Of a stretch of DNA of 64,000 bases, positions 28,236 to 28,712 are shown piece by piece. Below the pieces are notes generated by a model. It made no database searches. It saw only the letters and a list, made by a program, of their open reading frames with translations, and had not been told where the DNA came from. Origin of the DNA: a virus (taxonomy: Duplodnaviria; Heunggongvirae; Uroviricota; Caudoviricetes); IMG/VR virus record IMGVR_UViG_2681813455_000010, positions 1,928 to 65,927 of that record, one strand, 5' to 3'. The position numbers and the translations under genes are program-made. Within the stretch, counting starts at the first letter, position 1; every line of letters begins with the position of its first letter.

Positions 28236-28301
28236 TCCTCACACTCCATAAACAACAAAGCCGCCCAAAAGGCGGCTCATGAGTTACGGCAGGATTAACT
28301 A

Positions 28302-28640
28302 TTATTTACATGCATTAACACTATCAGCAAAAATTTTTGGCGTTAATGCTGGTACACGTTCATAAAGAGTAAAACTACTGCCATTTCCTGCTTTTTTGAT
28401 ATCAAGCACAACATCATATCCCCCCATAGCCTGTGGAACTAAAAGGCTTACCCCATTCTCAATAGGAAGGGATGTTATAGGTGTTCCATTACCAGCCCAT
28501 TGTCTGGATATGCAGCCTGACAATTCATCAATATTTTTTAATGAATTACCTTCCATTACAGGTTTTCCGGATTTTACGTAATCCAAAGATTTACATCCTG
28601 TTAAGGCAATAATCGTGCAGAATAAAATCGTTTTGTTCAT
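28302..28640 (-). CDS. Lipoprotein moron between tail genes I and J
   Basis: ORF 28302..28652; likely start MNKTILFCTIIALTGC (signal peptide plus lipobox Cys); AT-rich; followed by hairpin. Confidence 0.55.
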   Translation of the reverse strand: MNKTILFCTIIALTGCKSLDYVKSGKPVMEGNSLKNIDELSGCISRQWAGNGTPITSLPIENGVSLLVPQAMGGYDVVLDIKKAGNGSSFTLYERVPALTPKIFADSVNACK

Positions 28641-28712
28641 ATAGCTAACCAATAGAATAATTATCAGTGTTCGATATAAATATTAAATCAGTTAGAACAT
28701 GAGTAAATAATA

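Follow-up and report, generated by a model that had tools for sequence, protein, structure and literature searches.

How does a short, AT-rich gene come to lie between the tail genes I and J, which are nearly contiguous in phage lambda, and what might its product do there? The question is raised by the 64,000-nucleotide stretch of IMG/VR record IMGVR_UViG_2681813455_000010 (positions 1,928 to 65,927) analysed here as a whole and called the window, an Escherichia coli lambda-like prophage showing 100% identity to strain SF-468 over the region searched. A preliminary description of this DNA had placed between I and J a lipoprotein gene of about 110 amino acids (aa), regarded it as a moron with its own terminator and proposed that the product masks phage receptors in the manner of Cor or Llp. 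The analysis bears out the gene and its foreign character, assigns the terminator to the ancestral tail operon and leads to a different, tentative view of the function, namely an exclusion of incoming phages that would act in the cell envelope and would not depend on the receptor used by the prophage itself.

The origin of the gene becomes apparent from the positions of its relatives, which belong to the protein family PHROG 914. In a survey of tail-operon junctions, the H, M, L, K, I and J proteins of the window were mapped onto 80 loci, and gene tables were used in addition. In all E. coli loci the homologue is found in the I-J junction. In Klebsiella, in Kluyvera, in the HK97-like coliphages Fraca and LMessi and in several metagenomic phages it is found between K and I, and in HK97-like Enterobacter prophages it lies between the chaperone gene T and the gene for the tape measure, which is exactly the site of HK97 gene 15, the founding moron (PMC3594210). 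As homologues occupy three different tail-operon junctions, this shows that the PHROG 914 gene is a mobile accessory cassette distributed over at least three junctions in the tail operons of lambdoid and HK97-like phages. Nearly all family members with a readable context are encoded in sense orientation within the tail operon, and in every enterobacterial context the homologue is 8-20 GC points below its neighbours. Furthermore, one homologue (P0025) is chromosomal and lies outside any prophage (L085 7001-7339, record CP001560.1, which we take to be Shimwellia blattae; also L086), with a YidB-like gene and the ecotin gene on either side and copC-copD-yebY nearby. This suggests a cellular origin of the family or, alternatively, a capture of the gene by the host.

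In the window, alignments with the lambda-type phage HK630 and with Ayreon place the beginning of the extra DNA directly past the stop codon of gene I. The I-J spacer amounts to 477 base pairs (bp) compared to 60 bp in lambda, HK630 and Ayreon, corresponding to a net gain of 417 bp. The open reading frame (ORF) of the lipoprotein has a GC content of 0.363, and of 0.239 at third codon positions, compared to 0.56 for I and J, and the spacer upstream of it has a GC content of only 0.222. Judged by alignment and base composition, the about 420 bp from the gene I stop to the older hairpin described below are shown to be AT-rich, horizontally acquired accessory DNA of the moron kind. The AT-rich gene of the preliminary description was thereby confirmed, with 112 aa and 36% GC against 56%. 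The program-made ORF list offers an alternative TTG start at 28652, which would yield 116 aa; the ATG at 28640 yielding 112 aa is the start chosen in the RefSeq entry WP_001332187.1 (“hypothetical protein”, with the same ends) and in all homologues. From Cys16 onwards the mature lipoprotein comprises 97 aa. About 20 bp of the I-J interval, between the lipoprotein ORF and the hairpin, have no assigned feature. Two plus-strand ORFs (28396-28581 and 28481-28612), which are antisense to the conserved gene and lack RefSeq annotation, were rejected as candidates, and an Rfam scan of 28100-28900 returned only sub-threshold chance matches, so that no RNA element explains the I-J region.

It was also correctly described that I and J are normally adjacent in lambda: in 115 phage records that have matches to both flanks, the two genes are separated by about 60 bp. 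The insert itself was not matched in a megablast search of 50,697 phage records, and a tblastn search with three family members retrieved only Fraca, LMessi and two Klebsiella phages, none of which is characterised. For E. coli, 60 records were sampled evenly from the 4,375 records that match the flanks. The I-J gap has 56-60 bp in about 52 and 477 bp in four of these 60 records, and no intermediate size was found. The idea of the I-J junction as a general hot spot for cargo was rejected, the sample being binary, with the junction either empty or occupied by this gene. Overall, 337 of the 5426 complete E. coli genomes (about 6%) contain the insert, with at least 98% identity among the records listed and always with the annotation “hypothetical protein”. 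Carriers include E. coli O104:H4 and IHE3034 strains, and relatives of the gene are frequent in prophages of Klebsiella and Enterobacter.

The protein matches PHROG 914 over its whole length (residues 1-112 against profile positions 1-118 of 118; E 7.3e-33), a family to which no function is assigned. Neither the protein nor 61 of its relatives matched Pfam, the sole NCBIfam match was VirB7 at E 0.08, which is at the level of the signal peptide, and no PADLOC model for anti-phage defence gave a match with E up to 1. When 1.8 billion cluster representatives were searched with a profile, 125 relatives were retrieved, nearly all of them with a length of 105-125 aa, and the gene was found on at least 1000 contigs. 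Close homologues with 48-62% identity occur in Klebsiella, Enterobacter, Kluyvera and Jejubacter, and Cys, Trp and Pro residues are invariant across the genera. Within E. coli, 11 variant codons are synonymous and 6 non-synonymous. This excess of synonymous changes speaks for purifying selection acting on a genuine gene. An intact ORF was found at about 95% of the examined loci, and frameshifted or truncated copies are few (P0002, P0018 and loci L067-L069). Public annotation already lists the product as a hypothetical protein, and PHROGs places it in a family without an assigned function; the family itself is uncharacterised, and a literature search found no paper on WP_001332187 or phrog_914.

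Does the insert carry its own transcription signals? Morons were defined by Juhala and Hendrix as extra DNA of deviating GC content, which has its own promoter and terminator and is expressed from the repressed prophage (PMC3594210). The insert is extra DNA absent from close relatives and its GC content differs from that of its neighbours, a dip that is repeated in the Klebsiella, Kluyvera, Enterobacter and Fraca contexts. A hairpin and a T-rich tract had been noted at about 28256-28285, and the terminator scan located the hairpin within this range (GAGCCGCC-TTT-TGGGCGGCTT followed by TGTTGTTTAT, at 28278-28258 of the minus strand), with a folding energy of -22.1 kcal/mol and a z-score of -2.2. 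Hairpin and T tract are situated immediately 5' of the J ribosome-binding site, within the late operon. A homologous hairpin is present in the empty 60-bp I-J spacer of HK630/lambda and of Ayreon (GAGCCGCCTTTTGGGCGGCTTTGTTGTTTATGGAG in the window versus GAAACCGCCTGCGGGCGGTTTTGTCATTTATGGAG in HK630), and the Ayreon record labels its own I-J hairpin as a terminator. Because the homologous hairpin sits in spacers that are free of the insert, the terminator was not brought in with the gene; by this comparison, hairpin and T tract belong to the ancestral lambda late operon, and the cassette landed upstream of them. The attribution of an own terminator was therefore not borne out, though a terminator-like hairpin does follow the gene. 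The I-J hairpin could act in termination, in RNA stability or in translational control of J. The conserved I-J hairpin and T run were also located at about 585-615 of L082 and at 802-841 of L081, and similar hairpins ending in TTTTTATGGA/G are found 3' of the lipoprotein gene in Klebsiella (L004 8366-8385) and in Fraca (L002 9354-9373).

On the promoter side, the 72-bp spacer is a candidate region only. The best matches within it, found by eye, are TTTACT-17-AATATT and TTTAAT-16-GATAAT, each with a score of 8/12. In relatives the upstream spacers have only 32-37 bp, or the gene overlaps with the upstream gene. For the Enterobacter context at the T/tape-measure junction (L008 7914-8000), it was observed by eye that the ribosome-binding site of the homologue lies inside an inverted repeat, CCTCC-TTACTTCT-GGAGG, which could sequester it.

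The predicted product supports the earlier assignment of a signal peptide with a lipobox cysteine. The N-terminus reads MNKTILFCTIIALTG-CKSLD, with LTG preceding Cys16 and Lys in position +2, and the lipobox fits the PS51257 pattern [LVI][ASTVI][GAS]C within about 35 residues, a type of pattern matched by 57 of 61 family members. According to the Lol sorting rule, the residue following the lipidated cysteine decides on the membrane, and residues other than Asp in position +2 direct the lipoprotein to the outer membrane. As Cys16 is followed by Lys and not by Asp, an outer-membrane location is predicted; Asp in position +2 occurs in 0 of the 61 family members. The lipid-carrying Cys, Cys43 and Cys111 are invariant in the 61 aligned sequences, and P27, W48 and G63 are nearly so. 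The AlphaFold2 model is confident (mean predicted local distance difference test score, pLDDT, of 83.7); in it, a short helix and one strand precede a long helix on which Cys43 is located, four antiparallel strands follow, and the C-terminal helix bears Cys111. Within this model, Cys43 and Cys111 probably form a periplasmic disulfide. The best match among viral models is an uncharacterised protein of Pseudomonas phage phiAH14a with template-modelling (TM) scores of 0.70/0.83. The model furthermore resembles Francisella Flpp3 (DUF3568) and the N-terminal domain of BamC at 6-10% sequence identity, and there is no Pfam match to DUF3568; this modelled likeness is that of a shared common fold and is no evidence for homology. 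In the fold comparison, KA1, DUF302 and Bet v 1-like domains score about as well.

What would such a lipoprotein do for the prophage? The explanation closest to the preliminary description is an inactivation of the outer-membrane receptor recognised by the phage's own J, as known for Cor and Llp, which would stop superinfection as well as the loss of progeny on cell debris. It draws on a predicted outer-membrane lipoprotein being encoded in the tail region next to J, and co-expression with the tail genes would suit the protection of progeny. Moreover, there are precedents. The proven exclusion lipoprotein Llp of phage T5 binds FhuA from the periplasm and refolds the FhuA loops (PMC9586334), and Lpp021 and Lpp010 of the mEpimmI coliphages are proven exclusion lipoproteins that go with OmpA- and LamB-using phages, respectively (PMC11893012). 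The gene shares with cor (of phi80, N15, HK022 and mEp167) and with llp that a small phage outer-membrane lipoprotein is encoded in the tail and receptor-binding-protein region of a siphophage, it shares with Llp the site on the periplasmic side, which is predicted here, and it shares with Lpp021 and Lpp010 the location in the structural cluster of temperate E. coli siphophages with lambda-like K, I and J. Llp has about 60 aa and llp lies beside the receptor-binding part. Cor has 77 aa in Fraca and Lpp021 72 aa, compared to 112 aa here. While cor and llp adjoin the receptor-binding end and track FhuA-binding phages, cor being located downstream of a FhuA-binding J, and lpp021 is found just downstream of J on the opposite strand, the gene in the window is situated upstream of a 434-type J and does not track the J allele; similarly, the lipoprotein types Lpp021 and Lpp010 correlate with the receptor, whereas no such correlation was seen here. 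At the level of the mature protein there is no likeness to Cor or Lpp021: hhalign of a 61-sequence profile against Fraca Cor aligned only the signal peptide and about 12 further residues, and for Lpp021 only the 20-residue signal peptide aligns, with a probability of 39%. The mEpimmI lipoproteins were thus rejected as relatives, being unrelated beyond the signal peptide, and no Llp chain was among the matches of either of the two PDB fold searches.

The J proteins themselves argue in the same direction. The C-terminal 250 aa of J (window 24822-25574) are 92% identical to those of phage 434 and of lambda h434 and 93% identical to those of mEp460. The receptor of phage 434 is reportedly OmpC, so that OmpC would presumably be the receptor to be masked. 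Phages with a 434-type J, including 434, mEp460, Tritos and others, do not have the lipoprotein gene. Among the IMG/VR loci having a lipoprotein of 98-100% identity and a complete J, at least four alleles of the C-terminal 250 aa were counted: 25 loci share one allele, 6 are of the 434 type, 3 have a third allele, 2 an unrelated one, and one has a lambda-like hybrid. The tape-measure proteins encoded beside the lipoprotein show either 26-31% or 82-100% identity to that of the window. In other genera, homologues of about 50% identity occur together with J proteins whose length ranges from 1,067 to about 3,400 aa, and phage Fraca carries, next to the homologue, also a cor gene downstream of J. 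The lipoprotein gene itself is situated beside the N-terminal part of J or even farther upstream, away from the receptor-binding part, where cor, lpp021 and llp are located. Since one lipoprotein allele pairs with several types of J and tape measure and Fraca has cor in addition, these comparisons argue against a masking of the own receptor in the style of Cor or Llp. In its simplest form this proposal of the preliminary description is contrary to all these indirect tests, and we consider it quite unlikely; a more general role in exclusion is plausible. As a separate observation, M, L, K, I, the lipoprotein and the J N-terminus are 90-100% identical in the prophages of L012-L069, yet these have at least four J C-termini and two unrelated types of tape measure, a clear case of mosaic exchange flanking a conserved block on either side.

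The explanation that is tentatively favoured, with a confidence that stays somewhat short of even, is an exclusion of incoming phages that acts in the envelope and is independent of the receptor. Going by sequence features and by analogy, the lipoprotein would be exported, lipidated at Cys16 and sorted to the inner leaflet of the outer membrane, folding in the periplasm as a small alpha/beta domain that the Cys43-Cys111 disulfide would probably staple. Its site of action would be the cell envelope, and it would not be part of the virion. In lytic growth the gene would be read together with the tail genes through antiterminated late transcription, and in the lysogen a low-level expression from the AT-rich spacer may be possible. 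The exclusion of incoming phages would take place at the periplasmic face of the outer membrane and would be directed against the tail tip on entry or against a conserved component of the envelope, not against the receptor of the prophage's own J. This role is favoured because most of the characterised small lipoproteins from siphophage tail regions exclude phages, because the family shares a junction with HK97 gp15 and because the J allele appears irrelevant. Two other assignments were rejected. A component of the virion or of tail assembly is incompatible with a Sec-exported lipoprotein, which cannot enter a virion built in the cytoplasm, and with the varying position of the gene; an o-spanin would not be expected outside the lysis cassette, and the protein is too large and not proline-rich.

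Gp15 of HK97, a superinfection-exclusion moron encoded between T and the tape-measure gene (PMC3594210), is the most instructive comparison. In both cases an extra gene of lower GC content, encoding a small envelope protein, is inserted in sense orientation into a lambdoid tail operon, and gp15 excludes phages without blocking the receptor, which is the kind of mechanism favoured for the lipoprotein. The site of insertion differs, being the I-J junction in the window. Moreover, gp15 is a small YebO-like protein of the inner membrane and not a lipoprotein, and unlike for the lipoprotein, function and expression from the prophage were demonstrated for gp15. An AT-rich moron for an envelope protein in a lambdoid tail operon is thus a familiar kind of element. 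A bolder version of the favoured explanation, in which PHROG 914 as a whole would be a widespread receptor-independent exclusion system whose lipoprotein intercepts the incoming tail tip, the tape measure or a conserved envelope factor required for DNA passage as an outer-membrane counterpart of gp15, would explain both the hopping between junctions and the indifference to the J allele; we regard it as doubtful.

Several observations weigh against a receptor-independent exclusion by the lipoprotein. Neither Pfam and PADLOC nor the fold searches and profile alignments yielded a sequence or fold link to characterised exclusion proteins. The modelled fold is common and carries no functional message, because unrelated domains such as KA1 and Bet v 1-like domains score similarly. 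Because of the chromosomal homologue outside prophages, the family is not strictly a phage function. Expression is a further point: the promoter scan detected no sigma-70 promoter site of at least 9/12 on the coding strand upstream of the gene, and there is no good Shine-Dalgarno sequence before the start, the ribosome-binding site being weak. Finally, the 3.4 kb between the lipoprotein gene and the receptor-binding end of J allow recombination to split the two, which weakens the argument drawn from their lack of co-variation.

Apart from phage exclusion, the lipoprotein might serve the host cell as a factor of lysogenic conversion unrelated to phages, in serum or complement resistance as Bor and Iss, in tolerance to envelope stress or in adhesion. 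Morons in the late region of lambdoid phages, including Bor and Lom, are often of this kind (PMC3594210). Like Bor/Iss of lambda, the protein would be a prophage-encoded outer-membrane lipoprotein of about 100 aa specified by a lambdoid accessory gene, with the difference that the function of Bor is serum resistance and not exclusion. Bor adjoins the lysis genes. The chromosomal homologue, the resemblance of the fold to the Francisella lipoprotein Flpp3, which is called a virulence determinant in the title of its PDB entry, and the presence of blood, neonatal-meningitis, urinary and avian isolates among the carriers would fit a benefit to the host. Pfam and NCBIfam scans, on the other hand, brought up no relation to Bor, Iss or TraT, and the sense placement in tail operons, in some cases with spacers of only 32-37 bp or a 4-bp overlap, points to late lytic expression; this explanation is judged unlikely.

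The same placement would suit a helper of the lytic cycle that is expressed only late, which would modulate the envelope at lysis or keep newly released virions from adhering to debris or vesicles, by a general effect independent of the receptor. The sense orientation in the late operon is found in every context, and in some relatives translation is nearly or actually coupled to that of the upstream gene, as seen from the ATGA overlap of 4 bp in the metagenomic phage of L087 and, in Klebsiella, from a spacer of 32 bp that contains an AAGGAG ribosome-binding site. In lambda, Q-dependent antitermination leads to read-through of downstream hairpins, so that the hairpin behind the gene would be no obstacle for late transcription. 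Against such a helper stands its dispensability, the gene being absent from about 92% of the sampled E. coli I-J junctions and from 115/115 matching phage isolates, and Pfam and PHROG revealed no likeness to spanins or other lysis proteins; a lytic function of this type appears very unlikely. That the ORF is a decaying remnant or arose by chance in AT-rich junk could be read from the few frameshifted or truncated copies and from the weak ribosome-binding site. This is extremely improbable in view of a conservation that spans several genera and includes invariant Cys, Trp and Pro residues, the synonymous excess in E. coli, the confident structure prediction and the large share of intact copies. 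Receptor-independent exclusion in the envelope thus remains the explanation that is preferred for the gene, whose features and flanks are compiled in the table.

Table. Features of the I-J region, given in positions of the window.
Feature	Position	Strand	Basis and remarks
Prolipoprotein coding sequence, 112 aa	28302..28640	minus	Stop codon 28302-28304; ORF list, RefSeq, PHROG 914, alignments and AlphaFold2
Predicted signal peptide and lipobox, MNKTILFCTIIALTG-C	28593..28640	minus	Cys16 codon 28593-28595; PS51257-type pattern
AT-rich spacer of 72 bp, gene I stop to lipoprotein start	28641..28712	minus	GC content; candidate promoter region
DNA without counterpart in lambda-type phages, approximate extent	28286..28712	minus	Alignment with Ayreon and HK630
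GC-rich hairpin (28258-28278) and T-rich tract, terminator-like, ancestral	28248..28278	minus	Terminator scan, fold and homologues
Tail tip assembly gene I, upstream flank	28713..29354	minus	ORF; RefSeq “tail assembly protein”; about 90% nucleotide identity to lambda-type I
Tail tip / host specificity gene J, downstream flank	24822..28235	minus	ORF; RefSeq gpJ

Further observations concern the surroundings of the gene in the window and in related phages. Downstream of J (about 16100-24800), the window contains, according to the annotation of L001, a truncated pseudogene for a tail-fibre N-terminus, several genes with tail-fibre domains, an integrase fragment as well as DUF4365 and recombinase genes. 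This distal end of the prophage looks rearranged or degraded, and neither lom nor cor is annotated there. In related phages, the K-I junction is a large cargo site (L091 and L092, 2300-7000; L070, 6000-10900), which holds genes for Arc-like repressors, antirepressor genes of the Bro-N, KilA-N and ANT types resembling immI, and ORFs of unknown function, the Arc/antirepressor modules being found in L091 and L092. The lipoprotein homologue follows this cargo and is located immediately upstream of I. Moreover, unrelated predicted lipoproteins are encoded in tandem with the homologue in LMessi (L003 8647-8994, beginning with MRKFLSILACSLIIVGC), in Fraca (L002 8725-8994) and in L070 (10409-10855, 148 aa, beginning with MKKLAIIGFAALVLSGC). 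Tail-operon junctions seem to accumulate lipoprotein genes.

As a summary, about 6% of the complete E. coli genomes carry a member of a gene family without assigned function. If receptor-independent exclusion holds true, PHROG 914 would add a new protein family to the determinants of phage resistance that are conferred by prophages, it would be relevant for the prediction of host ranges in phage therapy of Enterobacteriaceae, and it would offer a handle on the periplasmic stage of siphophage DNA delivery, which is poorly understood. If the lipoprotein instead serves the fitness or virulence of the host, it would be another gene of lysogenic conversion. Either way, it is well-defined for study as a single gene, although for the present it represents an ordinary accessory element of a type that is already familiar.
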